In this document: one piece after another, positions 3,330-55,786 of the stretch
Position numbering within the stretch: the first letter of the stretch is position 1
Layout: the number at the start of each line of letters is the position of its first letter
Origin: Proteobacteria bacterium UBA6156
GTDB taxonomy: Bacteria; Pseudomonadota; Alphaproteobacteria; UBA2136; UBA6156
NCBI GenBank assembly: GCA_002422365.1
Contig: DIUO01000010.1
Span: 2,739-66,738 of the forward strand
Length of the DNA stretch: 64,000 nucleotides
Direction: 5' to 3'
The notes under the pieces: model-generated
Databases searched by the model: none
The model's input: the letters and a program-made list of their open reading frames with translations, nothing else
What the model was told of the DNA's origin: nothing
Translations under genes and position numbers: made by a program

Positions 3330-3415
3330 GCACGGTTTCCCGGGCGGCGGTGGGGTCAAATGTGGAACACATTTGGGGCCCCCACCCCGACCCGGGATCT
3401 CGAATATACAGGCAC
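3330..3415 (+). repeat. Family A hairpin element, copy A1
   Basis: GCACGGTTTCCCGGG...GGGGTCAAATGTGGAACACATTTGGGGCCCCC...CCCGGGATCTCGAATATACAGGCAC. Begins 21 nt after the stop of 2665-3309. Confidence 0.8.
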
Positions 3416-3507
3416 GAATAAATTCCAGATATAAGTGCACCAGGCACGTCTTTACCTTACGAGCCATAAACCTTGTCAATCGGCAAGTTTCAGCCAATAC
3501 TAAACTC

Positions 3508-4158
3508 ATGGCCAAACTCAAAGACTCCCTCCAGAACATGATGCGCCGCCGCGAAGCGGATATGGAATCCGGCCGCGAACCGGCATCCGACTACGACACT
3601 CTCCTGTCAGACTACCAAGAACTGCAACGCATGTTCGAAGACCAAGCCCAGCTCATCAACGCGCTGCAGAGAGACTCCGGCGCCGACCCCCTCACCAGCC
3701 TCGCCAACCACCGTACTCTGGGGGCCGAGCTCGAGCGCTCCCTCGCCACCGCCCGCCGCTATGGCCGCCGCCATGGCCTCATTCTGCTGCGGATAGTCGA
3801 CTTCACCAACCTCTCCAACCAGCTCGGAGAAGCCGCCACCGACGCCATCCTCCGCCACATGGCCAGCCTCATCCGCCAGAACATCCGCCCGACCGACATC
3901 GCCGCCCACCCCCACTTCGGAGAATTCGCGATTATCCTGAACGAGCTCCGCGCGGTCGAAAACGCCACCCAGCGGGCCGAAGAAATCTGCGCCATCGCCG
4001 CCAGCACCCCCTGCGTGGTCGGTGGGCGCAGCCTGCACTGCATGGTGGTGCACGGCCTCACGGTGTTCGGGCAAGACGACGAAGCGACAGACATACTGGC
4101 CCGCACCCGCAAAGCCCTGGCCGACGCCGCCCCCGCCGGCTCCGTCCTCTCTTCGTAA
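3508..4158 (+). CDS. GGDEF-domain protein with degenerate active site (HFGEF)
   Basis: In-frame ATG at 3508 lies downstream of repeat A1. Coiled-coil N-terminus, DPLTSLANHRTL, and HFGEFAIIL in place of GGDEF. Confidence 0.7.
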   Translation: MAKLKDSLQNMMRRREADMESGREPASDYDTLLSDYQELQRMFEDQAQLINALQRDSGADPLTSLANHRTLGAELERSLATARRYGRRHGLILLRIVDFTNLSNQLGEAATDAILRHMASLIRQNIRPTDIAAHPHFGEFAIILNELRAVENATQRAEEICAIAASTPCVVGGRSLHCMVVHGLTVFGQDDEATDILARTRKALADAAPAGSVLSS

Positions 4159-4179
4159 AAAGCAAAAAATCCCTCTCTT

Positions 4180-4265
4180 GCACCGTTTCCCGGAACGCGG
4201 CGGGGTGCGATTTGGAACAAATCGCGGGCCCCCGCCCGTATCCGGGATCTGGAAAATACAAGCAC
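4180..4265 (+). repeat. Family A hairpin element, copy A2
   Basis: GCACCGTTTCCCGGAACGCGGCGGGGTGCGATTTGGAACAAATCGCGGGCCCCCGCCCGTATCCGGGATCTGGAAAATACAAGCAC. Starts 22 nt after the stop at 4158. Confidence 0.85.
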
Positions 4266-4300
4266 AAAAACCCAAACCTAACCCACCCCCCACCGCTCAC

Positions 4301-4394
4301 TACGGAATGCCAGAGAGAAGAGGGAACCACCGTGCCTTGGCGCAAACCTCCCACCAGGCACCACCCCTAACCATCCACGGCATTTCCTGTAAAT
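4301..4394 (+). repeat. Family B repeat, copy B2 (lacks the internal hairpin)
   Basis: TACGGAATGCCAGAGAGAAGAGGGAACCACCGTGCC...CCTCCCACCAGGCACCACCCCTAACC...CATTTCCTGTAAAT. Alignable to B1 and B5. Confidence 0.6.
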
Positions 4395-4451
4395 GCGTCT
4401 CATATCCAAGGTTTTAAAATACGTTTTCTACCTGTCCAGCCCTGCATTTTC

Positions 4452-5120
4452 ATGTTAGCAAACCACATGATTTCGCCGCAATCCCACCTCGCAGGCACCC
4501 AGTGCACCCAATGCGGCTACCCCTCCTGCAACGCCTACGCCCAAGCCCTTACCCAAGGCGCCCCCACCACTCTCTGCCGCCCGGGCGGAGCACGCGTGGC
4601 CCAGGCCTTGGCTCAAGCCCTCAACCAACCTTACCAACCGCCCGCCCAACCCCCACTCCCACCCCAAATCGCTTTTGTTACAGAAGCCGACTGCATCGGC
4701 TGCACCCTCTGCCTGCAAAAATGCCCCACCGCCGCCATCGTCGGCGCACCCAAGCAGCTTCATACCGTGCTGAATGACCTCTGCACCGGCTGCAACCTCT
4801 GCGTCCCCGTCTGCCCCACCCAATGCATTAGTTTACACCCCGCACCCGCCGAGCATAAACTCACCGAACAACTGCCAAACGCCTCCCAAACCCCCGCCGC
4901 CCAAGCCGCCACCTGGGCCCTCGTCAAAGCCGCCGCCCAACGCGCTGCCACCCCCGCCACCCGCACCACCCACACCAAGGCGCAAGCTGCCCCAGTCGAG
5001 CTGAATCCCCTCCAACCCAACCTCACCGCCAAAATCGCCGCCGCCCGCCACAAATCCGCTACAAAATACGCCGCCAAAGGCCCCCTCAAAACCCCCAAAG
5101 CCCTCAAGCCCAATAAATAA
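4452..5120 (+). CDS. RnfB/RsxB-like ferredoxin (N-terminal Fe-S domain plus 2x[4Fe-4S]) with Ala/Lys/Pro-rich tail
   Basis: CTQCGYPSCNAYAQAL..CRPGG and two CxxCxxCxxxCP motifs (CIGCTLCLQKCP, CTGCNLCVPVCP). Confidence 0.7.
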   Translation: MLANHMISPQSHLAGTQCTQCGYPSCNAYAQALTQGAPTTLCRPGGARVAQALAQALNQPYQPPAQPPLPPQIAFVTEADCIGCTLCLQKCPTAAIVGAPKQLHTVLNDLCTGCNLCVPVCPTQCISLHPAPAEHKLTEQLPNASQTPAAQAATWALVKAAAQRAATPATRTTHTKAQAAPVELNPLQPNLTAKIAAARHKSATKYAAKGPLKTPKALKPNK

Positions 5121-5178
5121 CCGGCCCCTCGCAGGGCCGGTATCGCGCCCAACGGCACGTAATCGTACTAATATCCGT

Positions 5179-5601
5179 CTATCGCGAGCAAATCGCGGCT
5201 AAAGCCTCCTCCTGGGTAAAAACCCGCATCGTGTTCTGAATATAAGCGTTGGCGCTCTGCCGCATCTGCAAATAAAGCGCCATTGCATTGAACATCGAGA
5301 GGTCAGAAGCCAGCGTGCCCGTAGCCCGCTTCTCGCGCTGACAGATATGAAGAATAGTATCAGCGTCATCAAACATGAGGATGAGAAGGTAGTTATTCTC
5401 GTTCTTCGTATGGAAAAGAAGGAAAGGATTCTCCTCTTTCGACGGTCGCCCGACAGTGAGATTCACATGCTCATGAAGGCAACAAATATGCTCACCCGGT
5501 TCAATGACGCGAGACTTGATATCCAGCCCAACAGCCTGAAACATGACCCGGATAACCGCATAACTGCTTTCCGGGGTGAAAAGACGAGGTTCGTTCTTCA
5601 A
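5179..5601 (-). CDS. hypothetical protein (AT-rich orphan)
   Basis: 140-aa ORF in a low-GC patch. TTG start at 5601 is preceded by AGGAGG 5 nt upstream on the minus strand. No family recognised. Confidence 0.55.
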   Translation of the reverse strand: MKNEPRLFTPESSYAVIRVMFQAVGLDIKSRVIEPGEHICCLHEHVNLTVGRPSKEENPFLLFHTKNENNYLLILMFDDADTILHICQREKRATGTLASDLSMFNAMALYLQMRQSANAYIQNTMRVFTQEEALAAICSR

Positions 5602-5680
5602 AGTAGCCTCCTGCTAGAAGAAAACGCATTGTATGCATACATCCCCTTCACCCCGCGCGCAACCCCTGCTATAACAGGTT

Positions 5681-6841
5681 ATGTCACACCCTGCTTCGCT
5701 TGTTCCCGTCGCCGCCCTGCATCAGGGCGTCTTAACCGACTCCGACTTCCACCACCTCCACACCACCGGCGCGTTCACCAGCGCTACCCCGCTGGCGCAG
5801 GGCCAAATCCAGCCCGCCAGTGCCGACCTCCGCCTCGGCACCGTCGCCTACCGCATCCAGGCAGGCTTCCTCCCCGGCAAGGGCCGCAAGGTGAGCGACT
5901 GCCTGCCCAGCCTCACCATGACCGAGCTCGATCTCACCCAACCCCAACTGTTCGAGCGCGGCGCCGTCTACCTCGTCCCCCTGCAAGAAAGCCTGAACCT
6001 CCCCCCCCAAACCGAAGGCACCGCGAGCCCCAAAAGCAGCACGGGCAGGCTCGATATTTTCGTGCGCCTCATCACCGACCACGCCACGGTCTACGACACC
6101 ATCACCCCCGGCTACAGCGGCCCGCTGTTCCTGGAAATCTCGCCCTTAACCTTCCCCATCATCCTCCGCGCCGGAGACCGCCTCAACCAGCTCCGCCTCC
6201 GCCAGGGCGATGTCCGCGTCTCCGATGCCGACCTCACCGAACTCCACAAGCAAGTCCCACTCCTCCGCCAGCAAGGTGGCAGTAAGGAGGAGTTGATGAA
6301 CCAGGGCCTCTGGATAAGCATCGACCTGCACGGCGAACAGAAAAACAGCACGGGCCACAACCCGGTGGTGGGCTACCGCGCCAAACACCACACTCAACCG
6401 ATAGACCTCGCGCGCATCGGCAGCTACCCCTGGAGCCACTTCTGGGAACCCATCACCCGCACCAACTCCAAACCGCTTATTTTGTACCCAGAGGAATTCT
6501 ACATCTTCGCGTCATCCGAGGGCATCTGCGTCCCCCCCACCCACGCGGCCGAGCTTGTGGCGTACGACACCCGCGTCGGCGAAATCCGCGTCCACTACGC
6601 CGGCTTCTTCGACCCCGGCTTTGGCTATGTCGCCGCAGGCTCGCCAGACAACGGCACCACGGCGGTATTAGAAGTCCGCGCCCACGACGTCCCCTGTGTA
6701 TTAGAACACGGCCAGCCCATCGGCCGCTTCATCTACGAAAAACTCCTCCAGCCGCCCCAAACCACCTACGGCGCAGGCATCGGCTCCAACTACGCCGGGC
6801 AGGGGCTCAAACTTGCCAAACAGTTCCAAATGGATCAATAA
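5681..6841 (+). CDS. dcd: 2'-deoxycytidine 5'-triphosphate deaminase (long DCD form)
   Basis: 386 aa. ASADLRLG, GRLDIFVRLI and a C-terminal dUTPase-like half, typical of the long dCTP deaminase family common in alphaproteobacteria. Confidence 0.8.
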   Translation: MSHPASLVPVAALHQGVLTDSDFHHLHTTGAFTSATPLAQGQIQPASADLRLGTVAYRIQAGFLPGKGRKVSDCLPSLTMTELDLTQPQLFERGAVYLVPLQESLNLPPQTEGTASPKSSTGRLDIFVRLITDHATVYDTITPGYSGPLFLEISPLTFPIILRAGDRLNQLRLRQGDVRVSDADLTELHKQVPLLRQQGGSKEELMNQGLWISIDLHGEQKNSTGHNPVVGYRAKHHTQPIDLARIGSYPWSHFWEPITRTNSKPLILYPEEFYIFASSEGICVPPTHAAELVAYDTRVGEIRVHYAGFFDPGFGYVAAGSPDNGTTAVLEVRAHDVPCVLEHGQPIGRFIYEKLLQPPQTTYGAGIGSNYAGQGLKLAKQFQMDQ

Positions 6842-6847
6842 CGGCGC

Positions 6848-7438
6848 ATGTCCCACCCGCCCCTCATCCTCGCCAGCCAGTCCACCACCCGCAAAGCGCT
6901 GCTGGAAAAACTCGGCATCCCCTTCACCGTCCAACCCGCCCATGTCGATGAAACACCCCTCAAGCACGAAGCGCCACTAGCCTACGTCAAACGCATCGCC
7001 CTGGCCAAAGCCCAAGCCGTCAGCACGCAAAACCCCGGCAGCGTGGTGCTGGCTGCCGACACCCCCGTCATCGTCGGCCGCCGCATCCTCCAAAAACCAG
7101 AAAGTTATGAAGAAGCATTAACTATGCTTAAACTTCATTCCGGACGCCGAATTAGCATACCCACAGTCGTCGTTGTAGTAGACGCAACTGGCAAATCCCA
7201 TCATAAGGTTTCCGTTAGCTGGGTTAAGTTTAAACGCTTCTCTCAAGCCGAAATTGAAGTATTTTTGGCGGCAACGAAATGGCGTGAATTTTCAGGTTCA
7301 ATTCATATTGAACTTATGGAGCCGTGGTTGCAAACCACCCACGGAAGCATAAGCGGTATCATGGGCCTCCCTTTGTACGAAACCACCCGCCTCCTCGCCC
7401 GCGCAGGCCTCACCCCAAAACCGTTCAAAATTGCATGA
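6848..7438 (+). CDS. maf: Maf-like nucleoside triphosphate pyrophosphatase
   Basis: LILASQSTTRKALLEKLGIPF N-terminus and LAADTPV motif. 196 aa. Confidence 0.85.
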   Translation: MSHPPLILASQSTTRKALLEKLGIPFTVQPAHVDETPLKHEAPLAYVKRIALAKAQAVSTQNPGSVVLAADTPVIVGRRILQKPESYEEALTMLKLHSGRRISIPTVVVVVDATGKSHHKVSVSWVKFKRFSQAEIEVFLAATKWREFSGSIHIELMEPWLQTTHGSISGIMGLPLYETTRLLARAGLTPKPFKIA

Positions 7439-7444
7439 AAAAGA

Positions 7445-7529
7445 GCACCGTTTCCCGGAACGCGGCGGGGTGCGATTTGGAACAAATCGCGGGCCCCCGA
7501 CCGTATCCGGGATCTCGTCGCATAAGCAG
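7445..7529 (+). repeat. Family A hairpin element, copy A3 (divergent 3' tail)
   Basis: Identical to A2 through the hairpin, but the tail reads CGTCGCATAAGCAG. Starts 7 nt after the maf stop. Confidence 0.8.
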
Positions 7530-7583
7530 AGACTCAAAAGACCCAACCCCCGGCACGTCCCGTAAATCAGAGGCCCAACCCCA

Positions 7584-8753
7584 ATGACGTATCATATCCT
7601 CTACGAATCAACCCCCTGGCACACCCGCTGCGCCCTCTTCGACGACCACGCGCGCCTCCTCACTCTCCGCTACGACGAATGCACCCGCCGCCATATCGAA
7701 GGCGCACTTGTCTACGGCCGCGTCCGCCAGGTCGTCCCCAGCCTGGGCGCCGCATTTGTAAGTGTCGGCGACCTCAACGACGCGCTCCTCCCGTTCAACA
7801 CCCTGCCAGAAGGCACCAAACTGACCGAAGGGCAGGGGATAGTCGCCCGCATCACCCGTGGCGGGTTTTACGAGAAAGGCCCCCGGCTGGATGCCCGCAC
7901 GGCCATCAAACCACCCTCGGCCGATACCCCATGCCCCAGCATCATCTCCCCGCCGCCATCAGCCCTCACGCGGGCGCTGCACGACGCTGGCTCCAACCCC
8001 GTCACGGTCTGGATCCTCAACGGCGCCCACCGCGACGCCGTCACCCGCCACGTGCCGGAGCGTCAGGTCAAACAGCTCGACCTCGACGGCTCGCACGAAG
8101 GCCTGCCCTCCCTCACCGACCTTCTCGATGACCACCTCGACGCCATGGTCAGCCCCCGCCCCACCTTTCCCTTCAAAGGCAAGGGGATAGAAGGCAACCT
8201 CATCATCGAGCTCACCTCAGCCGTAGCCACCATCGATGTCAACGCCAGCCCCACCACCCATATGCAAAAGGCCGACGCCACCATGGCCGTCAACCTCCGC
8301 GCGGCAGAAGAAGTCGCCCGCCTCTGCCGCCTGCTCGACCTCGGCGGCAGCGTGATTGTCGACTTCATCACCCCCAAAAGCAAAAACCACCGGGGCATCG
8401 TGGCCGAGCATCTCGGCGCCACCTTCAATGTCACCGACGACCGCTTTGTCGAACTCCGCCCCATGTCGCGCCATGGGCTATTAGAGCTCACGCGCGAACG
8501 CTCCGGCCCCTCCCTCTCGCTGCTGCTGAAAACGCCGGAGTACATCGCAGGCCGCGTCGGCCTCACCCTCTGGCGCACTCCAGCAGGCGCCAACCCCGCC
8601 TTGCGGCAGCAAACCATCACCGCCCACCCGGATGTCATCTACGTCCTCCAAAAACACCTCAGCCAAAGCATCTGCCTGGCCGCACTGGGCCGCAGCGTGG
8701 CACTGGTGCCCAACGCCTCACTGCCCTATACTCATGTGCAAATCACTGGCTAA
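7584..8753 (+). CDS. Rne/Rng-family ribonuclease (RNase E/G-like, short form)
   Basis: 389 aa. S1-like N-terminus (GALVYGRVRQVVPSLGAAFVSVG), catalytic region ending IVDFI, and a position after maf. Confidence 0.7.
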   Translation: MTYHILYESTPWHTRCALFDDHARLLTLRYDECTRRHIEGALVYGRVRQVVPSLGAAFVSVGDLNDALLPFNTLPEGTKLTEGQGIVARITRGGFYEKGPRLDARTAIKPPSADTPCPSIISPPPSALTRALHDAGSNPVTVWILNGAHRDAVTRHVPERQVKQLDLDGSHEGLPSLTDLLDDHLDAMVSPRPTFPFKGKGIEGNLIIELTSAVATIDVNASPTTHMQKADATMAVNLRAAEEVARLCRLLDLGGSVIVDFITPKSKNHRGIVAEHLGATFNVTDDRFVELRPMSRHGLLELTRERSGPSLSLLLKTPEYIAGRVGLTLWRTPAGANPALRQQTITAHPDVIYVLQKHLSQSICLAALGRSVALVPNASLPYTHVQITG

Positions 8754-8768
8754 GTTAAGGTAATCCTC

Positions 8769-9410
8769 ATGCTCTTCTCCTCCGCGCCGCGCTATGACAT
8801 CACCACCCCCGCCGAGTCCAGCGACGTCGACAGCGTCATCTACCTGGCGCGGGAAGCCTTCAACGACAGCACCATCAATGCGACAACGGTGTACGACTCC
8901 TACCGCAAAAACCCCTACTGCCATCTGATTGCGAAAGACAGCGCCAACAACATCGTCGGCTATACCGACTTCTTCCTGCTTCGCCCCGCCACGTTCGATG
9001 CCTTCCTGCAAGGCCGCATTACCGAAAGTCATTTCGTCTCCGACGACATCCTCCCCTTCGGCAGCCCAGAGGCCCACAACCGCATTTATCTCGGCGGCAT
9101 CGCCGTCTTCACGCCCTTCGGCAGCGAGCGTGGCCGCATCCTGCAAGTCCTCCTCCACGCCTTCACCCAGCTGATGCTGGCCAAATACATTACGCCAGAG
9201 ACCCCCGAATACACCGCCTACGCCACCGGCTACTCTCAAGATGGCCTGAACCTGCTGAACCGCCTCGGCTTTACCCTCATGGCACCCGGAGAAGGCCGCG
9301 AAGATAACCAACCCCTCTACAGCGGCAAACTCAACCAAGCCTCACTCACCGCCATGGCCAACCATTTCGCCCGCGCCCAACGCCACTACACGCTCGAACT
9401 CCGCAGCTAG
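8769..9410 (+). CDS. hypothetical protein, possible GNAT-fold acyltransferase
   Basis: 213 aa. YLGGIAVFTPFGSERGRILQVLLHAF resembles a GNAT beta4-alpha3 segment. The assignment is weak. Confidence 0.5.
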   Translation: MLFSSAPRYDITTPAESSDVDSVIYLAREAFNDSTINATTVYDSYRKNPYCHLIAKDSANNIVGYTDFFLLRPATFDAFLQGRITESHFVSDDILPFGSPEAHNRIYLGGIAVFTPFGSERGRILQVLLHAFTQLMLAKYITPETPEYTAYATGYSQDGLNLLNRLGFTLMAPGEGREDNQPLYSGKLNQASLTAMANHFARAQRHYTLELRS

Positions 9411-9495
9411 CACCTTTTCCCGGAACGCGGCGAGGTGCGATTTGGAACAAATCGCAGGCCCCCGCCCGTATCCGGGATCTCGAATATACAAGCAC
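9410..9495 (+). repeat. Family A hairpin element, copy A4
   Basis: Starts on the last base of the TAG stop at 9408-9410. Same architecture as A2 with a few substitutions. Confidence 0.8.
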
Positions 9496-9540
9496 AACCC
9501 ACCACTAACTGGGCCTCAAACCAACAAAGCCGCACGACAC

Positions 9541-9630
9541 CGGGGGTTAAGGGGGCCTTAGCCCCCTTAAAGAGGCTTTGCCTCCATTCCCGCCATTCCG
9601 GCGCAGGCCGGAACGAAGGCCGGAACCCAC
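9541..9630. repeat. Family C-like GC-rich hairpin cluster (C1)
   Basis: TTAAGGGGGCCTTAGCCCCCTTAA and ATTCCGGCGCAGGCCGGAA hairpins. The second motif recurs as an insert within A7 (46125-46150). Confidence 0.4.
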
Positions 9631-9688
9631 GTATGACCAAACTTTAATCCGGCACCCCTCCAGCCCATAGCCATCTTCAGTTCATAAA

Positions 9689-9721
9689 CACCCCTACCCA
9701 TCCCCAGCACTTCCTGTAAAT
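9689..9721 (+). repeat. Family B repeat, partial copy B3 (3' end only)
   Basis: CACCCCTACCCATCCCCAGCACTTCCTGTAAAT matches the 3' ends of B1 and B5. Confidence 0.45.
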
Positions 9722-9769
9722 GAAGAAGCATCCTCACTCAAATATGTAATCGCCAATTATCAACACCCC

Positions 9770-14580: not shown

Positions 14581-14655
14581 GCCTATCTATGTACATAGGC
14601 ACAACTCTTAAACTGACATACCGGCCAAGCCCCTCACATCACCCCACCAATCCCC

Positions 14656-20283: not shown

Positions 20284-20293
20284 ACCCGAAGTC

Positions 20294-46052: not shown

Positions 46053-46068
46053 AACCAAAACGGAAGCA

Positions 46069-46174: not shown

Positions 46175-46212
46175 CGCCCCCAAAGCAAAAGCCCGGCAAC
46201 CGCCGGGCTTCG

Positions 46213-46620: not shown

Positions 46621-46777
46621 GGTGTCCTCCATTATCTGAGGGGGGAAAAGGTCAGGGGCAAGCCCCATTTGGCTGCGGTTGTACCCATAAAATATTGTTT
46701 TGTACACAAAAAACTGCCCCGGCACAAAGCCGGGGCGGTCGTCGCGTTGGGTGCGGGCAGTGGGCAGCTAAGGGGGC

Positions 46778-47293: not shown

Positions 47294-47587
47294 TTGAGAT
47301 CCCCTTATCTGGAAAGAAGAAAGAGAGTTCAAGAAAAACGCAACTTACAAGCAGATGACCCATCTCACACCCAAACGCGCCCACCGGCAATACAATTCAT
47401 ACGTATAAACCACATTTTTCCCTTTACAGCCGTCATATTCCTATCTATAAGGCGCACAACCCCGGATGGCGAAGGGGCTGGTCACCGCACCGATATTCCC
47501 CCTGCGGCCCGTGCGCCCAACCTGAAAAGGTTGTTGTATTACGTCAAGTAATTGTCGTAATACCTTCATAGTATTAAAGGTACTACA

Positions 47588-48046
47588 ATGAACATCACCC
47601 ACAGCATCAAGGCGAGCGACGCCAAGCACGAGTGGTTCGTGGTCGACGCCAACGGCATCCCGCTGGGCCGCCTTGCCACCACCATCGCTCTGCGCCTGCG
47701 CGGCAAGCACAAGCCTAACTACACTCCCCATGTCGACAACGGCGACCATATCGTTGTTATCAATGCCGAGAAAGTGAAGCTCACCGGCAACAAAGCCCGC
47801 AACATGGAATTTCACTACCACACCGGTTACGTGGGCGGCCTCAAAACCATCATCGCCGGAGACGAACTGGCCGGCAAACACCCCGAGCGCGTCATTCAGC
47901 GCGCCGTGGAGCGTATGATGCCCAAGGACAGCCCGCTCTCCCGCCAAATGTTCACCAAGCTGCATGTTTACAAGGGTGAAGCCCACCCCCACAGCGGCCA
48001 GCAACCGCAAGAGCTCAAACTGGGCGCCAAAGAAGGGGTACGCTAA
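47588..48046 (+). CDS. rplM: 50S ribosomal protein L13
   Basis: [38 protein letters not shown] is canonical L13. Confidence 0.97.
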
Positions 48047-48471
48047 TGTCTATCGCCGCGAATATCGAAGCCGCCAACAAAAAGGCAGGCAAGTTCTACG
48101 CCACCGGCAAACGCAAAACCTCGGTTGCCCGTGTGTGGGTTACCAAGGGCACCGGTACCATCACCATCAACGGCCGCACGCTGGAAGACTACTTCGGCCG
48201 CCCCGTGCTGCAGATGATTGCCAACCAGCCGTTCTTCGCCATCGACATGGCCGGTAAGTTCAACGTGGTGGCCCGCTGCCACGGCGGCGGTCTCTCCGGC
48301 CAGGCCGGTGCGCTGCGCCACGGCATCGCTAAGGCGCTGAACGACTACGACGCCGCCAACCGCCCGGCACTGAAGAAGCTCGGCTACCTCACGCGCGACT
48401 CCCGCGTGGTGGAAAGCAAAAAGTACGGCAAGCACAAAGCCCGCCGTTCCACCCAGTTCAGCAAGCGCTAA
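48046..48471 (+). CDS. rpsI: 30S ribosomal protein S9
   Basis: TAATG overlap with rpl[20 protein letters not shown]..., and the C-terminus ends in [11 protein letters not shown]. Confidence 0.97.
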
Positions 48472-48487
48472 GCCTGCTGCAACACAA

Positions 48488-48521
48488 CCACAAGCGCCCC
48501 AACCGGGGCGCTTGTGGTTTT
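48488..48521 (+). terminator. Rho-independent terminator of rplM-rpsI
   Basis: 13-bp perfect stem CCACAAGCGCCCC-AACC-GGGGCGCTTGTGG followed by TTTT. Confidence 0.85.
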
Positions 48522-48564
48522 AGCGTCAACAAAAAAACCGCCCCATCACAGGGCGGGCCGTCGT

Positions 48565-49020
48565 TCATCCTACGAGAAGGGTTCTATGCTCCAGCATAAG
48601 ATAGGCCTGCCCCGGCCGCCAGTAGGCAAGAACACGGGTTCCAAGCTTGCGGCCCAAGGTCTGGCCGTAGGCAAACTGGAAGGTAAGCCTTGCCTCGTCG
48701 TTATCCAGCCGAAGCAGCGCATCAGGGACCGTCACCCGATGGGAAAACACCGACGTTTCAACCGCCAACCCGGTGCAGATATCCCGGATATCCAGGGCGG
48801 TTGCCGCCGCCACACCGGCTTCCCAGGCCAGCAACCTGGCTTGAGAGGTTTTCAGACGCGCATCAGCCTCCTTCGAAGGCAGAAGCCGGGCCACCCACCA
48901 GTCAAACTGGTACTGCTGGTGTAAGCTGAGTGCGCGATTCAAACCTAATCGCAGGTACAAAAGAACGCTTACACCCAACGCAAGCATAGTTGCCAATACG
49001 GCCAGTATAAATTCAACCAT
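48565..49020 (-). CDS. hypothetical membrane-anchored protein
   Basis: ATG at 49020 with GAGGAACA RBS. N-terminal TM segment MVEFILAVLATMLALGVSVLLYL. Confidence 0.5.
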   Translation of the reverse strand: MVEFILAVLATMLALGVSVLLYLRLGLNRALSLHQQYQFDWWVARLLPSKEADARLKTSQARLLAWEAGVAAATALDIRDICTGLAVETSVFSHRVTVPDALLRLDNDEARLTFQFAYGQTLGRKLGTRVLAYWRPGQAYLMLEHRTLLVG

Positions 49021-49167
49021 TGTTCCTCGGCTTTCGCCGCTCCCTAAAAGAGAAAAATTGTACAAGCCGAACGGCTTCAACACATAAGTATACTAAAAAC
49101 TCTTACCGTCAAACAAAAAGTAGCCGCCCCAAAAAGGGCGGCTCATCGTCAGGGCAGGGGGGTGGTG

Positions 49168-49611
49168 CTACCACCAGAGAGACATCTCAGCGCGTTGGTC
49201 GGTGCACTTCCATACCGAAGGATGGATAGGCACTCTCTTCACCTCCTCGCAGCGCTGGGCAAGGGCGGTGGCGAACGCCTCCCAGTAGAGCTCGGCGTGC
49301 TCGGCGTGCAGCTCGCGCGGCACCGAAACAACGAATGTCAGGTACCCATCGGGCTTCGTCAGAGCAGCATCCAACGCAGGAATGTCCTCAAAGTGGAACT
49401 TTGCGACATCAGAGGTTGCTTGCCGCATCACGTCGAGAGCTTTCTCGCTCACCTGCGAAGCTTTTTTGAGCTTGCCGAGCGACGTGAATCTCTCATAGCC
49501 CCAGTGCTGCAAAGGCTGCGGCAATTTGCCGAAAGCCCAAGCGGTGCCACCGCATACCAGCAGCAGCAGAAGTGCAAAAACCGTCATTTCAGGCATGATT
49601 TTACGGCCCAT
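49168..49611 (-). CDS. hypothetical secreted protein
   Basis: GGGAGA RBS upstream of the ATG at 49611. Signal-like MTVFALLLLLVCGGTAWA. Confidence 0.5.
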   Translation of the reverse strand: MGRKIMPEMTVFALLLLLVCGGTAWAFGKLPQPLQHWGYERFTSLGKLKKASQVSEKALDVMRQATSDVAKFHFEDIPALDAALTKPDGYLTFVVSVPRELHAEHAELYWEAFATALAQRCEEVKRVPIHPSVWKCTDQRAEMSLWW

Positions 49612-49656
49612 GGCCGTCTCCCTAAGTGGTGAATTTGGCTCACGCGAAAACGAAGA

Positions 49657-49800
49657 CTAAGACCCACTCACCGGCGCCACCGGCGCCGAACTCTGCAGCT
49701 CGATGCTGCTCTGCCCAGACTGTAAAGCCGAAAGCACCACTATCAAGAACGCCAAGCCGACAAGCGACTTCGCGCAGATTCTCCAGACCGAATTATCCAT
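49657..49800 (-). CDS. possible small secreted/membrane peptide (47 aa)
   Basis: Hand translation gives MDNSVWRICAKSLVGLAFLIVVLSALQSGQSSIELQSSAPVAPVSGS. Only a weak AAGGA lies upstream. Below the ORF-track length cutoff. Confidence 0.3.
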   Translation of the reverse strand: MDNSVWRICAKSLVGLAFLIVVLSALQSGQSSIELQSSAPVAPVSGS

Positions 49801-49953
49801 GGTATGAGCGGTCCTTGGCCGCTAAAGAAACGTAAGGGAAAACTCAAGTGACGCCCACCCTACGCCCGAAAATCGAGTAAGGCAATCGTAAGAAACGAAT
49901 ATTTTTGACGCTCAGCTTCGCTTTGAACCAATTAACCCACACCCCATAAACAC

Positions 49954-49988
49954 AAAAAAAGGAGAGGGCAGCCACCGCCGCCCTCCCA
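49954..49988 (-). terminator. Rho-independent terminator (minus strand) after the small ORF at 50002-50133
   Basis: The minus strand reads GGGAGGGC-GGCGGTGGCT-GCCCTCTCC followed by TTTTTTT. Confidence 0.6.
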
Positions 49989-50001
49989 CCATCTTTCAGC
50001 C

Positions 50002-50133
50002 CTACTCACTCTGGGCCAGCAGCTCCGCCGGGGGCAGGGCCACAAACGGGCTTCCCGGAAGCGCCTTCCAGAAAACCCAGCCCGGCCACACCAGCACAGC
50101 CACCAAAAATAAAACAGTCATGAAAGATTTCAT
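50002..50133 (-). CDS. small hydrophobic peptide (43 aa)
   Basis: Hand translation gives MKSFMTVLFLVAVLVWPGWVFWKALPGSPFVALPPAELLAQSE. AGAGGAG RBS 7 nt upstream and an intrinsic terminator 14 nt downstream. Confidence 0.5.
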   Translation of the reverse strand: MKSFMTVLFLVAVLVWPGWVFWKALPGSPFVALPPAELLAQSE

Positions 50134-50324
50134 GCGCCTACTCCTCTAAACCTCCAGCGAGTATTTGCCCAACCATCCTACGCCTCTCACCCAATCCTAC
50201 AACCCCCTTGTCTGTATACCGCTGGCATGGTAAACACGCCTCATGTCACACCCCCACCGCCAAAGCGGCCCCCAGGCGTAATTCCTCATATCCTCACACC
50301 CTATATCCTCATATCCTAGCGTCC

Positions 50325-51101
50325 ATGCCGTCCTATACTGTCCTCCTCATGCGCCAAGACCGCACCGACCTGCGCCCGTTCCGCATGCACATCGGCGTCA
50401 AAATGTTCTGGTTTTTGGTGTTGCTCGCCATCGGCTTGCCCATTGGCGGCTTTTTGCTGTCGGTCGGCATTCTGGCGCCTGCCTGGCTTAAGCTGGATTT
50501 CCAAAGCATGCAGCAGAGCGTCGAAGAAGCCCAACACAGCCTCCAACCTCTCCAGCAACAAAATGCCGAGCTCGCGGCCAAAAAGCAGCAGCTGGAAGAA
50601 CAGCTTCAGCAAACGCGCGAGGCTCACGCCAAAGCCGAAACCGAAATTACCATGGCCCGCACCGCCCGCACCGAGGCCGCCAGCCGCATTGCCGACATGG
50701 AAGGCGAGCTGATAACCCTGAAAAAAAGCCTCGCCAGTTACGAGAAAATGCTCAAACCGAAGCTCGACCGCGAGCTGGTGGAATGTGTCGACTTCACCGC
50801 CACCCTCAACGATGGTGCCGTGGCCTATAAAACCAGCTTCGTCAAAGTCGCGCAGTCGGCCACCATGCCCGCGCGCCTCACCGCCCGCGCGCGCGTATCG
50901 GTAGGAGACAACGCCATGATGATGGAGCAAGGCCATTCCGGCGCTACCGTGGTTAACCACACGCTGGAGATGTCCAAAGCCCCCAACCTTAAAGGCAGCA
51001 TCCCGCTCGGCCAGGCCCAAAGCAGCGGCGCCACCCGCGTGCTAGATATCAAAATCTTCGATGGTTCCCGCGCCGTCGGCTACTGCTGGAAGACATTCTA
51101 A
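50325..51101 (+). CDS. membrane-anchored coiled-coil protein
   Basis: ATG at 50325. TM segment FWFLVLLAIGLPIGGFLLSVGIL, then a long Gln/Glu/Ala coiled coil. The start is uncertain. Confidence 0.55.
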   Translation: MPSYTVLLMRQDRTDLRPFRMHIGVKMFWFLVLLAIGLPIGGFLLSVGILAPAWLKLDFQSMQQSVEEAQHSLQPLQQQNAELAAKKQQLEEQLQQTREAHAKAETEITMARTARTEAASRIADMEGELITLKKSLASYEKMLKPKLDRELVECVDFTATLNDGAVAYKTSFVKVAQSATMPARLTARARVSVGDNAMMMEQGHSGATVVNHTLEMSKAPNLKGSIPLGQAQSSGATRVLDIKIFDGSRAVGYCWKTF

Positions 51102-51115
51102 ACGTAGCCGAAAAA

Positions 51116-51200
51116 GCGCCGATTCCCGGGTTGCGGCGGGGTACGGTTGGGTTACAAATCGCGGGCCCACAGCCCAACCCGGGGTCTCGATGAGACAAGC
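51116..51200 (+). repeat. Family A hairpin element, degenerate copy A8
   Basis: GCGCCGATTCCCGGGTTGCGGCGGGGTACGGTTGGGTTACAAATCGCGGGCCCAC...GGGGTCTCGA. Starts 15 nt after the stop at 51101. Confidence 0.5.
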
Positions 51201-51440
51201 CCCTTTGCAAACCCTCCAACTTCTCCTGCCATCCGTAAGGGCATCGTAACGTGTATTTTCACCCGTTTCGCTTAAGTATCTGTAAGCGCATGCCTAGCTC
51301 CTGTAACATAAAAACCATGCACAGCGTCCCATTCGCCACGGGCGCTTTTCAGGCAGGCTGTTTTCGGCTACTGTGGGCTTTAACAGGGCAGGGGTGCCGC
51401 ATCGGCGGCATGCCTTGCAAATCAAGGAGAATACACAACC

Positions 51441-51941
51441 ATGTTATGGTTTCTGGGCGGTAAAAAGGGCGGCAACAAGGCCGAGAGCGTCTCGCTCGAC
51501 GTCGTCGACCCCCGCGACATCGACGGCCACTGCCTCATCACCGGCAACCTGCAAATCCGTGGCGATGTCTACTTCAGCGGCCAACTGCGTGTCGATGGCC
51601 GCATCGACGGCAAAGTGAGCGTGTTCGAAGGCGGCAAAGGCCAGCTTATCGTCAGCAAAGGCGCCGTCATCAACGGCCCCATTTTCGCCAATACGGTGCT
51701 GGTCGATGGCACCATCAACGGCCCCATGGATGTCGAAGAAAAGCTTGAATGCCGCCCCAACGCCATAATCCGTGGCCGGGTCATCTACGGCAGCATCCAC
51801 ATTTCCGATGGCGCCAAAATCGAGGCCCAGTGCCAGCAACGCACCACCATCAGCCAAACCTCGCAAGCGTCAGAAGAAGCACCCTTCACCACCCCCATCC
51901 TCGCCACGCGCGATGTCACCAGCAAGCTCTCCAACGGCTAA
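51441..51941 (+). CDS. bactofilin (polymer-forming cytoskeletal protein)
   Basis: AAGGAGA RBS. Repetitive beta-helix pattern (GNLQIRGDVYFSGQLRVDGRIDGKV..., VINGPIFANTVLVDGTINGPM). Confidence 0.85.
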   Translation: MLWFLGGKKGGNKAESVSLDVVDPRDIDGHCLITGNLQIRGDVYFSGQLRVDGRIDGKVSVFEGGKGQLIVSKGAVINGPIFANTVLVDGTINGPMDVEEKLECRPNAIIRGRVIYGSIHISDGAKIEAQCQQRTTISQTSQASEEAPFTTPILATRDVTSKLSNG

Positions 51942-51946
51942 CCCCC

Positions 51947-52465
51947 ATGCTGCTGCCTCAAAATTTTCTGCCGTTTAAGGGTGTCACGCCGCAAATCCAC
52001 CCGCAGGCGTGGCTCGCACCCAATTGTACTATTATCGGAGACACCCACATCGGCGCCCACAGCAACGTCTGGTTCGGCGCGGTGGTGAGGGGAGACGTCC
52101 ACCACATCCGCATCGGAGACTACACCAACGTGCAAGACAACGCCGTCATCCACGTCACCACCAACAAATTCCCCACTCTCATCGGCAACCGCGTCACCAT
52201 CGGCCACAGCGCCGTTGTGCATGCCTGTACATTAGAAGACGAATGCCTGGTGGGCATGAACAGCACGGTGCTCGATGGCGCCGTGGTACAAACCCGCAGC
52301 ATGGTCGCCGCTGGCGCCGTGGTGGCACCGGGCAAGGTGGTGGAATCCGGCTGGCTCTGGGCAGGCGTCCCCGCCAAACCGATGCGCAAACTCACCGAAG
52401 ACGAACTCACCTATCTCGCATGGTCGGCCACGCACTACGCCGCTCTCTCCGCACTCTACCGCTAA
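51947..52465 (+). CDS. gamma-class carbonic anhydrase family / hexapeptide-repeat protein
   Basis: ATG at 51947. IHPQAWLAPNCTIIGDTHIG, NVWFGAVVRGDVHHIRIGDYTNVQDN, IGHSAVVHAC. Confidence 0.85.
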   Translation: MLLPQNFLPFKGVTPQIHPQAWLAPNCTIIGDTHIGAHSNVWFGAVVRGDVHHIRIGDYTNVQDNAVIHVTTNKFPTLIGNRVTIGHSAVVHACTLEDECLVGMNSTVLDGAVVQTRSMVAAGAVVAPGKVVESGWLWAGVPAKPMRKLTEDELTYLAWSATHYAALSALYR

Positions 52466-52567
52466 TCATTTTATCTTCAATCACCTCAAACAAGGCCTTA
52501 ACCTATTAAGTTAAGGTGCCTGGGCGCACCAGTGTGTGGCCAATACCCCACAAGTGCCTGTTTATAT

Positions 52568-52586
52568 TGCTTACAAAGTGCTTACA
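52568..52586 (+). promoter_or_regulatory. Direct repeat TGCTTACA-N3-TGCTTACA (11-bp phasing), candidate regulator binding site
   Basis: Exact 8-mers at 52568-52575 and 52579-52586, about 210 nt upstream of the Met-rich protein gene. Confidence 0.3.
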
Positions 52587-52797
52587 TGGCCAAGCGGTTG
52601 TTGACAACACGACCCTTCGCTCCGTAAACCTATCCTTAGGTTTCGTAGGGGCCACGGCTTGGGTGTAAAACCCCGAGGTCGTTAGGTGCAGGCGGCGGCT
52701 GGCAACAGCTGGCTTCCGTCCGGCGAAACCAAATGGCCCCGTAAGCGTTAGCCTACGGCAGGCCCCTGAGATAACAAAGATGAAAAGGATCACTCTA

Positions 52798-53079
52798 ATG
52801 AACAAGGCTCCCTTGATTATCGCCGGTATCGCCGTTTTGGCTGTTGCTGCTTACCTGGTGTACAACAACAACAACGCAACCCCGGTCGAAGAAGCCGCTC
52901 CCGCTCCCATGGAAGCTCCTATGCCGATGGAAGCCCCCATGCCGATGGAAGCACCCGCTCCGATGGACGCTCCCGCCCCGATGGACGCTCCGGCTCCGAT
53001 GGAAGCCCCCATGCCGATGGACGGCGCCGCTCCTGAAGCCGCTCCGGCTCCCGAAGCTGCCCCGGCCGCTGCTCAGTAA
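52798..53079 (+). CDS. membrane-anchored Met/Pro/Ala-rich hexapeptide-repeat protein (candidate Cu(I)/metal-binding)
   Basis: AAGGA sits 8 nt before the ATG at 52798. TM segment LIIAGIAVLAVAAYLVY, then (MEAPMP/MDAPAP) x7. Confidence 0.6.
   Translation: MNKAPLIIAGIAVLAVAAYLVYNNNNATPVEEAAPAPMEAPMPMEAPMPMEAPAPMDAPAPMDAPAPMEAPMPMDGAAPEAAPAPEAAPAAAQ
52909..53034 (+). repeat. 18-bp in-frame tandem repeat x7 (ATGGAAGCNCCNNNNCCG)
   Basis: Units start at 52909, 52927, 52945, 52963, 52981, 52999 and 53017 (the last is degenerate). Confidence 0.85.
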
Positions 53080-53092
53080 GCAGGCCGCTGCC

Positions 53093-53118
53093 AAAAAGCC
53101 CCCACATGGGGGCTTTTT
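53093..53118. terminator. Bidirectional Rho-independent terminator between convergent genes
   Basis: AAAAAGCCCCC-ACAT-GGGGGCTTTTT. An A-tract and a T-tract flank the stem. Confidence 0.8.
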
Positions 53119-53166
53119 GGTGCGGCATCAGCTCACGTTATCGTCAAAATATACCGAGAAACGCCT

Positions 53167-54372
53167 TTAAATCTTCATCACCTGCCGGAACGGGTAAGGC
53201 TTACCCGCCAACCCATGCACCAGCGCGGCACTGCCGGTGGTAATGGCGCGCAGCTTGGTGGTCAGGCCTTCCTGGGCTATCAGCGGCAGCAGCGCTTCGC
53301 CGCCCACCAGGCTAAAGTCGCTGTGCCCGTCCAGGGCTTTCAGCAGGCCGCGCGTGGCGCGTTGCCCCTCGTCGTGCTCCACCACACCCAGGCTGCCCAG
53401 CATCAGCACTTTACTGGCACTGCGGGCTATTTTCGTCCACATCTCCAGCGTGTTGGGGCCAATGTCCACCACACTTTCGTTGCTGCCAATCAGGTGGGTG
53501 GCCACCGGTTTGGCGCCGTCCGCACCTTTCACCCACACATCTTGCGGCAGGTGCAGGCGGCAGCCCACCACACCGGCTTCGGTCAGCAGCTCGCGGGCTT
53601 TGTCCACGTGGGTGGGCGCCAGGCTGCTGCGGCCCATGCCCAGGTCGCGGGCCGCCAAAAAGGTATTGGCCAGCGTGCCCCCCAGCATAATCACATCCAC
53701 GTGCCCCAGCATATGCCGCAGCAGGTCCAGCTTTTCTTCCACCCCGCTGCCACCCAGTATCAATAAAGAGCCTTTCCCCATCGGCATCCCCAACATCCGC
53801 ATGTTGTCCAGTTCCTGTAACATCAGCTCGCCCACTACGGCCTGCGGCATGGCGGCCATCAGGCCGCTGGTGCTGGCGTGGGCCCGGTGGGCGGTGGCAA
53901 AGGCATCGTTCACAAACACATCCGCAAGGCGGCACAACTGCTCCACAAACACGCTCTGGTTCAGCTGTTCACCTAAATGAAACCGCACATTCTCCAGCAT
54001 CACCACATGGCCGGGTTCCAGGCTGTTCATGGCATTTTCGGCCACGCGGCCAATGCAGTCGGGCACATGCGGCACGCTTTGGCCTAACAGCTCGCTTAAA
54101 AGCTCGGCCAGCGGCTGGGTGCTCAGCGCGGGCACCACGCGCCCGCCGGGGCGGCCCCAGTGGGTCAAAATCCCCACCCGCGCGCCATCGCGCAGCAGGC
54201 GCTTCAGGGTCGGTAAAATGGCGCTAATCCTAAACGTATCCAGCGGTATACCCGCCTCATCGCGCAGCACATTCAGGTCTACCCGCAGCAGCACGCGCTT
54301 ACCGCGCAGGTCAAGTCCATTCAGCGTGGGCAAGGGTGCGGTGCTAAGAGTTTGGGCGCTCGATGCAGTCAT
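53167..54372 (-). CDS. pgk: phosphoglycerate kinase
   Basis: ATG at 54372. LDLRGKRVLLRVDLNV, FVNDAFATAHRAHAST and ILGGSGVEEKL motifs. Confidence 0.95.
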   Translation of the reverse strand: MTASSAQTLSTAPLPTLNGLDLRGKRVLLRVDLNVLRDEAGIPLDTFRISAILPTLKRLLRDGARVGILTHWGRPGGRVVPALSTQPLAELLSELLGQSVPHVPDCIGRVAENAMNSLEPGHVVMLENVRFHLGEQLNQSVFVEQLCRLADVFVNDAFATAHRAHASTSGLMAAMPQAVVGELMLQELDNMRMLGMPMGKGSLLILGGSGVEEKLDLLRHMLGHVDVIMLGGTLANTFLAARDLGMGRSSLAPTHVDKARELLTEAGVVGCRLHLPQDVWVKGADGAKPVATHLIGSNESVVDIGPNTLEMWTKIARSASKVLMLGSLGVVEHDEGQRATRGLLKALDGHSDFSLVGGEALLPLIAQEGLTTKLRAITTGSAALVHGLAGKPYPFRQVMKI

Positions 54373-54490
54373 AACGTTCGGTTCTTGTTGCAAGGTGTTG
54401 TCGCACATTTTAACTTAATCGGAAAGCCAAGAGCAAAAGGGGAGGGCACATACCATAAGCACACAGCTTCCCACCAGCCTGCCCGCTCAT

Positions 54491-54733
54491 ATGCCCGACA
54501 CCCGCACCGCCCAGCGCCTGCTCGACGTTCTGGCCACCCTGGAGCAAGCCCTGCGCAGCGGCCGCCACACCACCAGCGCAGCGCAAACGGGGCTGGAAGG
54601 CCGCATGGCAAATCTCGAATTTGAAAACCAGCGCCTCAAATCCACCCGCCAGCAAGCCGCAACGCGCCTAAATGCCCTGCTCGCCCGCCTCTCCGAGCAA
54701 CTGGAAAACCCCACAGAAGACTCGGCGGCATGA
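54491..54733 (+). CDS. small coiled-coil protein upstream of zapA (DUF4164-like)
   Basis: 80 aa. Its stop overlaps the zapA start (ATGA). Position and coiled-coil character match the gene that usually precedes zapA in alphaproteobacteria. Confidence 0.5.
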   Translation: MPDTRTAQRLLDVLATLEQALRSGRHTTSAAQTGLEGRMANLEFENQRLKSTRQQAATRLNALLARLSEQLENPTEDSAA

Positions 54734-55023
54734 GCACCCACATCGACCTCTCCATTGCAGGCCGCACCTACCGGGTGGTCACCGAGCAAGCGGAAGAAAC
54801 CCGCCTCAAAGCCCTGGCCGCCCGGGTCGATGCCATGCTGAACGAACTGAAACAGGCCGACCCGGACATCGACCGCGACCGCCAGCTTATCCTCACCTGC
54901 CTGCAACTCATGGCCGAACTCGCCGATTCCCATAACAAGCTCGACCTCCAAGCCTCCGCCGTCACCCATTTTCACCGCACCCTGGCCGAGCGTCTGGAAA
55001 ATCTCCTCCCCCCGGTTGCATAA
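54730..55023 (+). CDS. zapA: cell division protein ZapA
   Basis: IDLSIAGRTYRVVTEQAEETRLKALAARVD..., 97 aa. Confidence 0.8.
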   Translation: MSTHIDLSIAGRTYRVVTEQAEETRLKALAARVDAMLNELKQADPDIDRDRQLILTCLQLMAELADSHNKLDLQASAVTHFHRTLAERLENLLPPVA

Positions 55024-55051
55024 TCCCCCCCGCCGCCCCATCTAAGGGGGA

Positions 55052-55681
55052 ATGAACAGCGTCAACACCCCCGCCACCCAACCCGCCACCTTGCCCGTGG
55101 CCGAAAAAGCGCTCCTGCGCAGCATGTTCCGCCACCGCAGCCGGGTGATACCTGCCGACCTCGCCGCCACCACCAGCTTCAAAGCCGCCAACCTGGTGCG
55201 CACCGTGCTGGCCGGGCTGGGGCAGGGGGTCATCGCGCTCTATATTCCCCGTCGCGGAGAAGTCGACCTCACCCACCTCGCCGAAGACCTCTGGCAGGCA
55301 GGCCAAACCGTCTGCCTGCCGCGCGTGGTGCTGCGCGGCCACCCGCTGGTGTTTAATATATGGGAACCCCAAACCCGGCTGGAGCCCGACGCCCTCGGCC
55401 TGAAAGCCGCCACCGGAGACGAAATCACCCCTACCGTCATCGTCATGCCCATGGCGGGCTACAACCGGCAGGGCTACCGCCTGGGCAGCGGCGGCGGCTA
55501 TTACGACCACACCCTAGCCACCCTGCGCCAGCCCGTCACCACCATCGGCGTCAGCTATACCGAGCTTGAAATCCCCAGCTTCCCCGCTGAACCCCACGAC
55601 CACACGCTCTCCTACATCATCACGGGCAAAGAGGTCATCATCCCCACCCTCCTGGCCCCCGAAATCGTCCACACCATCTAA
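55052..55681 (+). CDS. 5-formyltetrahydrofolate cyclo-ligase
   Basis: AAGGGGG RBS. KALLRSMFRHR, and GYRLGSGGGYYD near the C-terminus. Confidence 0.85.
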   Translation: MNSVNTPATQPATLPVAEKALLRSMFRHRSRVIPADLAATTSFKAANLVRTVLAGLGQGVIALYIPRRGEVDLTHLAEDLWQAGQTVCLPRVVLRGHPLVFNIWEPQTRLEPDALGLKAATGDEITPTVIVMPMAGYNRQGYRLGSGGGYYDHTLATLRQPVTTIGVSYTELEIPSFPAEPHDHTLSYIITGKEVIIPTLLAPEIVHTI

Positions 55682-55699
55682 CTGCTCGAACCGAATCTC

Positions 55700-55786
55700 G
55701 CACCGTTTCCCGGGCTGCGGCGGGGTCAAATTTGGAACAAATTTGGGGCCCCCGCCCAGACCCGGGATCTCGAATATATAAGCACG
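55700..55786 (+). repeat. Family A hairpin element, copy A9
   Basis: Central stem CAAATTT-GGAAC-AAATTTG. Starts 19 nt after the stop at 55681. Confidence 0.8.

Follow-up and report, generated by a model that had tools for sequence, protein, structure and literature searches.

A stop-proximal hairpin repeat family in an uncultured alphaproteobacterium is probably a mobile palindrome of the REP/REPIN kind

What keeps a family of long hairpins directly behind stop codons, always on the same DNA strand? The question is raised by a 64,000-nt stretch of Proteobacteria bacterium UBA6156 (contig DIUO01000010.1; hereafter the window), which holds nine copies of a palindromic element that we call family A. 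A preliminary description of this DNA took the structure-preserving variation and the strict orientation and position of the copies as arguments for a role at the RNA level. We find instead that family A is probably a mobile palindromic repeat that is specific to its lineage and non-autonomous, its folded single DNA strand being moved by an enzyme acting in trans. It would belong with repetitive extragenic palindromic sequences (REPs), REP doublets forming hairpins (REPINs) and bacterial interspersed mosaic elements (BIMEs). The preliminary description is thereby partly supported: the observation is genuine and accurately described, and its interpretation overstates how unusual the element is.

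A 103-kb metagenome contig (ENA ERZ27315062) contains the window, whose sequence also occurs in JGI 3300001605 and in several Logan assemblies. About 86 kb of sequence from the source genome was covered, and 80 kb of it was examined for genes. Gene calls were taken from the public contigs that bear the window sequence.

A covariance model built from the nine copies recovers exactly those nine from the window, at 79 to 117 bits and all on the + strand. The number, starts and strand of the copies were thus reported correctly (9 in 64 kb), and the consensus given with them is accurate. The model finds no independent − strand copy in the window; its − strand matches are mirror images of the palindromes, at 17 to 26 bits. 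It also matches a different hairpin family (B) at 63149, with 30 bits. Solo arms are absent: in the window, family A arm motifs occur solely within complete elements.

The family A unit is 86 nt long and carries GCAC at both ends, the exception being the copy at 46069, which measures 107 nt. An unpaired 5′ tag, GCAC(C/G)GTT, leads into a 26-bp interrupted hairpin that takes up 60 nt of the unit, and this is followed by a 19-nt A-rich tail ending in GCAC. The unpaired 5′ sequence can be written at greater length as GCAC(C/G)G(T/A)TT, the 3′ tail as AUCUSGAAWAUA and the 3′ end as ...AAGCAC. As nearly all copies have GCAC at both ends, this tetranucleotide either belongs to the element itself or is a specific insertion target. 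Copies are 69–94% identical to one another (mean 80%). Within the unpaired 3′ tail, the S and W positions change together, G with A and C with T, in 7/7 copies. Pairing was rejected as the cause of this linkage, which is non-complementary and shows no covariation with the 5′ tail. It seems rather to reflect subfamily structure, one central stem being found with both tail types.

The hairpin itself is maintained. RNAalifold folds the alignment into one interrupted hairpin of 26 pairs, 10 of which show compensatory double changes. Its helix has an outer part (UCCCGGR/YCCGGGA), a G-rich middle part and a variable apical part, with a conserved 3-nt bulge on the 3′ arm. Folded singly, copies reach −37 to −50 kcal/mol, and seven of them have z-scores between −3.5 and −5.3. 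In the structure named for the family, 96.1% of cells are paired versus 84.6% in shuffles, and the covariation score is 0.341 versus 0.119, a value matched by none of 500 shuffles. When the register is slid, pairing falls to 22–57%. High pairing, covariation and the collapse of slid registers together establish that the hairpin is kept, in line with the original report of stems that differ between copies yet always pair. The + strand folds about 1.5 kcal/mol more stably in 8/9 copies and the order is reversed in one; a U-G pair is conserved in 8/9 copies. Because both strands fold about equally, covariation is unable to separate RNA from single-stranded DNA.

All nine copies are extragenic, lying between called genes, with one of them overlapping a stop codon by a single base. 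Near the start of the window, the copy at 3330–3415 (110 bits; stem CAAATGT/ACATTTG) begins 20 nt past the stop of a first GGDEF gene (2665–3309). The copy at 4180–4265 (116.5 bits) begins 21 nt past the stop of a second GGDEF gene (3508–4158), and a module of a third repeat family (C) comes next, at 4300–4398. At 7445–7530 (100 bits), a copy with a diverged 3′ tail lies 6 nt past the maf stop, within a 142-nt insertion between maf and rng. The first base of the copy at 9410–9495 (110 bits) is the G of the TAG stop of the gene at 8769–9410, a gap of −1 nt, and its spacer is convergent with a − strand Wzy_C gene. Inside the nuo operon, which encodes NADH dehydrogenase subunits, the copy at 33433–33518 (114 bits; stem AAGTTTT/AAAACTT) follows the nuoI stop by 14 nt. 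A second, divergent copy at 33583–33668 (113.5 bits) shares this spacer, 64 nt behind the first, and ends 27 nt short of a frameshifted GIY-YIG gene (33696–33860).

The remaining three copies repeat this arrangement. The one at 46069–46175 (79 bits) lies 16 nt past the RNase J stop and carries a nested 21-nt mini-hairpin, ATTCCGGCGGAGGCCGGAAC, in its internal loop (46131–46150). This mini-hairpin occurs a second time at 9595–9614. A degenerate copy at 51116–51201 (79 bits) begins 14 nt past the stop of the gene at 50325–51101. The last, at 55700–55785 (115 bits), lies 18 nt past the stop of the 5-formyltetrahydrofolate (5-FTHF) cyclo-ligase gene, and a family C hairpin is next to it at 55827–55883. 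Family A thus takes part in mosaics, combining with families B and C and with the mini-hairpin, forming a divergent tandem A-A pair and recurring in the order A then C.

Eight copies therefore stand −1 to 21 nt past + strand stops, with the ninth as a tandem, just as had been described. Under uniform placement within the present spacers, such proximity to stops has P ~4e-7. Of the occupied spacers, six are flanked by co-directional genes and two (those of copies 9410 and 46069) by convergent ones.

Are these copies ancestral regulatory structures? The closest relatives among GTDB representatives are uncultured Alphaproteobacteria metagenome-assembled genomes with 73–85% RNase J identity, and gene order is conserved well enough for four occupied sites to be compared. 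The maf stop and the rng start share an ATGA in the two relatives that are closest by RNase G (87% and 84%). The window has these genes 142 nt apart; the gap starts with the family A element, and ATGA is present on both sides. A duplication of ATGA is seen solely at this site, where it is required for keeping both the stop and the start codon. The distance from nuoI to the next gene is 17–25 nt in three relatives (L019, L023 and L024) versus 580 nt in the window. This 580-nt block consists of the two family A copies and the frameshifted GIY-YIG gene, and is missing in the relatives.

At the other two sites, the element precedes a hairpin that the relatives also have. Directly after the RNase J stop, five relatives carry a canonical terminator; in the window the element comes first and is followed by a retained hairpin (~46186–46209; T-run on the − strand). 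Immediately past the stop of the hypothetical gene hyp258, the relatives have a small T-run hairpin, which in the window lies downstream of the element at 51116. The landing sites are thus the first ~20 nt past stops, ahead of whatever terminator hairpin already stood there, or the junctions of operon genes that formerly overlapped or were tightly spaced. Since all four sites are empty in relatives, the copies are insertions that postdate the split. Family A copies are thereby shown to be recent insertions relative to close relatives.

The family appears to be narrowly distributed. Across 844 kb from loci of 52 relatives, the covariance model found no family A copy, with the exception of one related element in a single relative's locus, L021. 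This element scores 36.5 bits and has the architecture of family A, including the bulge on the 3′ arm. Exact-pattern scans gave no match in GTDB representative genomes, one match in JGI metagenome contigs (a chance match within a coding region) and 12 matches in IMG/VR, none of which was confirmed by the covariance model. Rfam gave no match at the gathering threshold for the window and none at E<=1 for positions 3300–4460. A protein search for spurious open reading frames (ORFs) over the copies, using concatenated six-frame translations of the elements, found nothing at E<=0.01. The family, which the preliminary description did not recognise, is unrecorded in Rfam and in the collections scanned, and would be a lineage-restricted repeat family that has previously gone unrecorded.

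Within its own genome, family A is likely to be more abundant than the window alone would show. Contigs from at least four independent Logan assemblies end inside family A copies, which points to many copies genome-wide. Furthermore, one JGI contig (L012; JGI 3300001605 Draft_10014943, 1–7770) is identical to window positions 2500–4460 through the first GGDEF gene, its family A copy, the second GGDEF gene, its copy and a further 45 nt. Past this shared stretch, it runs into a different locus with accD, rsmH and mraZ. Either the assembly was joined through the repeat, or the repeat marks a real rearrangement or duplication.

Does the orientation of the copies follow the genes or the strand? It is true that no copy follows a − strand gene in the window. 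A copy is found in the spacer of 8/50 + strand gene ends versus 0/18 − strand gene ends (Fisher p = 0.10), so that a dependence of orientation on the gene is beyond what the window alone can show. Along its whole length the + strand is rich in C and A, with a GC skew of −0.09 to −0.27 in every 4-kb bin. The skew holds across the − strand genes sfsA (−0.29), radC (−0.20) and pgk (−0.11) and is therefore not a coding-strand effect. Every other kind of repeat in the window, namely families B and C and arrays of the heptamer AAACACN, is likewise on the + strand, and family C copies keep this strand even where they adjoin − strand genes at their 3′ ends.

In L021, the related element runs antisense to its two flanking genes, a birA-like gene and the RNase J gene, which are both on the + strand. 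It lies on the C-rich strand of its contig, whose gene strand has a skew of +0.25 to +0.43. This is a single case and the sole discriminating one available; it counts against a gene-linked orientation. The strict co-orientation with genes that was first reported holds within the window, where it is confounded with strand skew, and is contradicted by the antisense element.

The composition of the window is a subject in its own right. GC skew was compared among loci L021, L019–L025, L028, L032, L036 and L055. On the comparable gene strand, it is −0.06 to −0.19 in close relatives and +0.085 in more distant Alphaproteobacteria, apart from the high positive values of L021. The AT skew of the window + strand is positive. 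Most core genes of the window are on the C-rich strand, whereas a leading strand is usually G-rich. Terminator-like sites with a hairpin and a T-run are nearly all on the − strand (46736, 48556, 49143 and 49987; regions 3000–10000 and 44000–56300). The near absence of T-run terminators from the + strand is in line with its T-poor composition.

How, then, might family A have come to lie where it does? It would have spread through the intergenic space of one uncultured alphaproteobacterium. We infer that its folded single DNA strand is recognised and moved by an enzyme encoded elsewhere in the genome, as for REPs and the REP-associated tyrosine transposase (RAYT) or for IS200/IS605-derived elements. 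Movement as a folded single strand would account for the conservation of the pairing and of the asymmetric bulge, and for an orientation tied to the strand. Orientation would be set by the compositional or replication strand and not by the gene. Survival close to stops would combine a target preference with the purging of insertions in coding and 5′ regulatory sequence. As the copies lie inside transcription units, the hairpin would also be present in the 3′ or intercistronic regions of mRNAs. There it may block 3′ exonucleases, as REPs do, as a side effect and not as the reason for the existence of the family.

The closest published parallels are REPINs and REPs. In the REPIN/RAYT system of Pseudomonas fluorescens SBW25 (Bertels and Rainey 2011, PMC3116915), as in family A, an extragenic unit of ~100 nt forms one long hairpin. 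REPINs commonly show compensatory changes between the two arms and also form tandem clusters (PMC3116915). Family A likewise shows compensatory changes, a tandem cluster (33433/33583), many copies, lineage specificity, non-autonomy and conserved flanking sequence. It differs in having no RAYT in the 80 kb, no solo arms, a tag beginning GCAC rather than GTAG, and a single orientation.

GTAG/CGTC REPs are species-specific elements of 20–40 bp with 8–9-bp stems and an unpaired GTAG or CGTC (TGTC/CCTC) tag (Di Nocera et al. 2013, PMC3733652). No transposase is known for the CGTC families, which are common in Alphaproteobacteria such as Micavibrio (PMC3733652). The REPs of Pseudomonas and Sphingomonas are found <20 bp past the 3′ end of the ORF that precedes them, with a varying distance to the following ORF; they are mostly between unidirectional and convergent ORFs (PMC3733652). 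REP ends can supply a stop codon, and several REP families can share a genome (PMC3733652). Family A is similar in its unpaired terminal tag, stem-loop and short tail, in its position after the ends of upstream ORFs and in the one copy that shares a base with a stop codon. It is different in its 86-nt length, its composite stem of 26 bp (three times longer) and its GCAC(C/G)GTT tag, and it fits none of the 28 described GTAG/CGTC REP families. In the broad sense of REP, family A is repeated, extragenic and an imperfect palindrome, but exceeds the size of 20–40 bp. At 86 nt, it is closer to a REP doublet or REPIN.

E. coli REPs had been named as the nearest established analogue, and this comparison stands. 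As in E. coli BIMEs, family A forms mosaics in post-gene spacers, with family C, the mini-hairpin and its own tandem copy. It too is probably co-transcribed and may stabilise the upstream mRNA. The sequences of BIMEs, which are bound by gyrase, IHF or Pol I, are unrelated to family A.

Two further kinds of mobile DNA invite comparison. The ends of IS200/IS605 elements contain a subterminal imperfect hairpin, and their single-strand transposition at the replication fork is strand-specific. Family A resembles them in its imperfect hairpin, in a conserved tetranucleotide a few nucleotides from the foot at both ends and in an orientation that looks strand-specific. No TnpA is encoded near family A in the 80 kb, and the likeness is one of anatomy and apparent strand specificity. 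Correia/NEMIS and ERIC elements are miniature inverted-repeat transposable elements (MITEs) of 100–150 nt that lie in intergenic regions and are co-transcribed, giving long RNA hairpins that affect mRNA processing and stability. They have true terminal inverted repeats and TA target duplications, whereas the extreme ends of family A (GCACCG... and ...AAGCAC) are direct and not inverted. A MITE with terminal inverted repeats was rejected on this anatomy: the extreme ends are non-complementary (GCACCGTTT versus ATACAAGCAC) and the inverted repeat is internal.

Published REPIN and REP behaviour therefore matches each feature that had seemed unusual, and such features do not exclude a mobile element. 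The argument that a passive mobile element would be unlikely to show them fails on this count and on the empty sites in relatives.

Several points weigh against a mobile palindrome moved in trans. No transposase, RAYT (a Y1 transposase, PF01797) or IS200/IS605 TnpA is found among the 97 called genes in the 80 kb, and the mobilising enzyme is hypothetical. No presence/absence polymorphism was found among sampled strains: where strains lacking a copy were sought, at the NuoI, Maf, GGDEF and 5-FTHF ligase loci, we saw the same layout or contigs ending in the element. The placement near stops is tighter than the purging of harmful insertions would obviously give. The strand bias of gene ends within the window is non-significant, and the case for a strand-linked orientation is built on nine copies from a single window and one related element in one relative. 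Finally, an RNA function could be just as good an explanation for the conserved tails and bulge.

An RNA function is the best of the alternatives, though we consider it unlikely. Family A would then be a selected element of the 3′ untranslated or intercistronic region, acting as an exonuclease block, as a processing site for RNase III, E or J or as a modulator of translation near termination, and transposition or recombination would be mere delivery. Every copy is in a transcription unit, just past a stop and sense to the upstream gene, and in both cases where a terminator-like hairpin exists the element is upstream of it. The maintained pairing with its 10 covarying pairs, the slightly more stable + strand fold and the conserved U-G pair also fit. 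Furthermore, T-run terminators are scarce on the T-poor + strand, where an alternative protector of 3′ ends could be useful, and REPs are held to protect mRNA 3′ ends (PMC3733652). On the other hand, close relatives have the same genes without the element, and one insertion split the translationally coupled genes maf and rng. The − strand folds nearly as well, the related L021 element is antisense to its genes, and all of these features are shared by REP/REPIN mobile DNA.

A further alternative keeps mobility and changes what lies behind it. Placement may be directed or kept by a mechanism coupled to translational or transcriptional termination; the copies could, for instance, be mobile modules that protect or process 3′ ends where U-tract terminators are scarce. 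Otherwise, family A may represent a new non-RAYT hairpin-repeat system with GIY-YIG nucleases as candidates. We regard this pair of options as doubtful. The GIY-YIG genes are unsupported as the source of a mobilising enzyme, as the four copies are mutually divergent and NCBIfam gives them no transposase-like assignment. Orthologues of GIY-YIG_c in relatives are 65–79% identical, which looks like vertical inheritance.

It is improbable that family A copies are architectural or protein-binding sites of the DNA (BIME-like, bound by gyrase or IHF, or strand-polarised motifs) with a polarity given by the replication strand. All repeat families of the window do lie on one strand, that strand is extremely skewed regardless of gene direction, and the L021 element is on the C-rich strand. 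The insertions are, against this, recent and lineage-specific, and a position close to stops has no obvious architectural meaning. Moreover, no binding protein is known, and the strand is defined by composition and not by the direction of replication.

Intrinsic terminators of an unusual, sequence-conserved type are a very improbable explanation, rejected on anatomy. A very stable G+C-rich hairpin immediately past stops, on a strand where canonical T-run terminators are rare, would suit it. The stem, however, is followed by no U-tract, and a terminator scan flags no + strand copy. Copies also lie within operons (maf-rng and nuoI-nuoJ), and termination there would deprive essential genes further downstream of transcription. 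A separate terminator-type hairpin lies behind one copy, and the relatives have ordinary terminators at these sites.

Integron attC sites marking gene cassettes are scarcely credible and likewise rejected on anatomy: family A offers imperfect palindromes with conserved extrahelical bases directly past ORF stops in one orientation, and many small accessory genes are interleaved in the nuo operon, but its ends have no RYYYAAC or GTTRRRY core sites, the 80 kb encode no integrase, the elements follow housekeeping genes (RNase J, maf, nuoI) without bounding accessory genes, and several accessory genes are conserved in place in relatives that lack any element.

Other repeats share the window with family A. 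Family B hairpins lie at 61860–61950, 63149–63257 and 63337–63440 and at 2095–2195 of locus L085. They have the outer helix TCCCGGA/TCCGGGA of family A and the apex GGGGTAGGGGCCCC. Two tandem copies follow a GIY-YIG gene. At the orthologous site in a sister species, family B has ~94% nucleotide identity, and the adjacent protein only 79%. Family C consists of a variable hairpin followed by CACCCCTACCCATC....GCACTTCCTGTAAAT. It is found at 388–513, 4300–4398, 7555–7570, 9689–9725, 55827–55900 and 58199–58331 and at 1800–1900 of L012, always on the + strand. Family C often lies 40–200 nt downstream of a family A copy, and three of its copies are next to − strand genes, at the 3′ ends of these.

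Tandem heptamer arrays, (AAACACN)n, lie on the + strand at 14649–14696, 20293–20326, 30612–30638, 35343–35369, 37091–37124, 37662–37723, 39214–39248, 41400–41426, 57042–57068 and 60961–61001. All 32 pattern matches are on this strand, versus 0.08 expected. Most arrays are 10–40 nt upstream of + strand starts; one is beside − strand genes, and three are within called ORFs. Analogous heptamer arrays with other units occur in relatives (TCACGAA in L022 and CTCAACA in L020).

Four mutually divergent genes for GIY-YIG nucleases of ~95 aa are found in the 80 kb, at 33696–33990, 58341–58658 (−) and 62800–63096 and at 15662–15943 of locus L007. Each adjoins family A, B or C hairpins, and one lies between recA and recX. 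The nuo operon (18867–42905) is interleaved with genes for GNAT acetyltransferases, PRA-PH/MazG, NUDIX, CutA1, peptidase S51, an alpha/beta hydrolase and several unknowns, and those for PRA-PH/MazG, NUDIX and CutA1 are kept in place in L019, L023 and L024. A small gene downstream of a bactofilin-hexapeptide pair contains 18-nt tandem coding repeats rich in Pro, Ala, Met and Glu (52878–53057). These repeats are conserved in relatives (L019 18080–18271; L023 19333–19530).

Family A is a clearly documented addition to the REP/REPIN-like repeats, new to the record and from a little-known clade of uncultured Alphaproteobacteria. Its empty sites show insertion exactly between stops and terminators, and even between overlapping genes of an operon. 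They also advise caution, as an RNA function does not follow from covariation and co-oriented placement close to stops alone. The element looks less unusual than its host genome, which has a very strong skew opposite in sign to that of other Alphaproteobacteria, repeats confined to one strand in the window and an interleaved nuo operon. If the full genome were to show that the orientation of family A switches with skew, it would provide a clean natural test of single-strand, replication-coupled mobilisation of a REP-like element without a known transposase.

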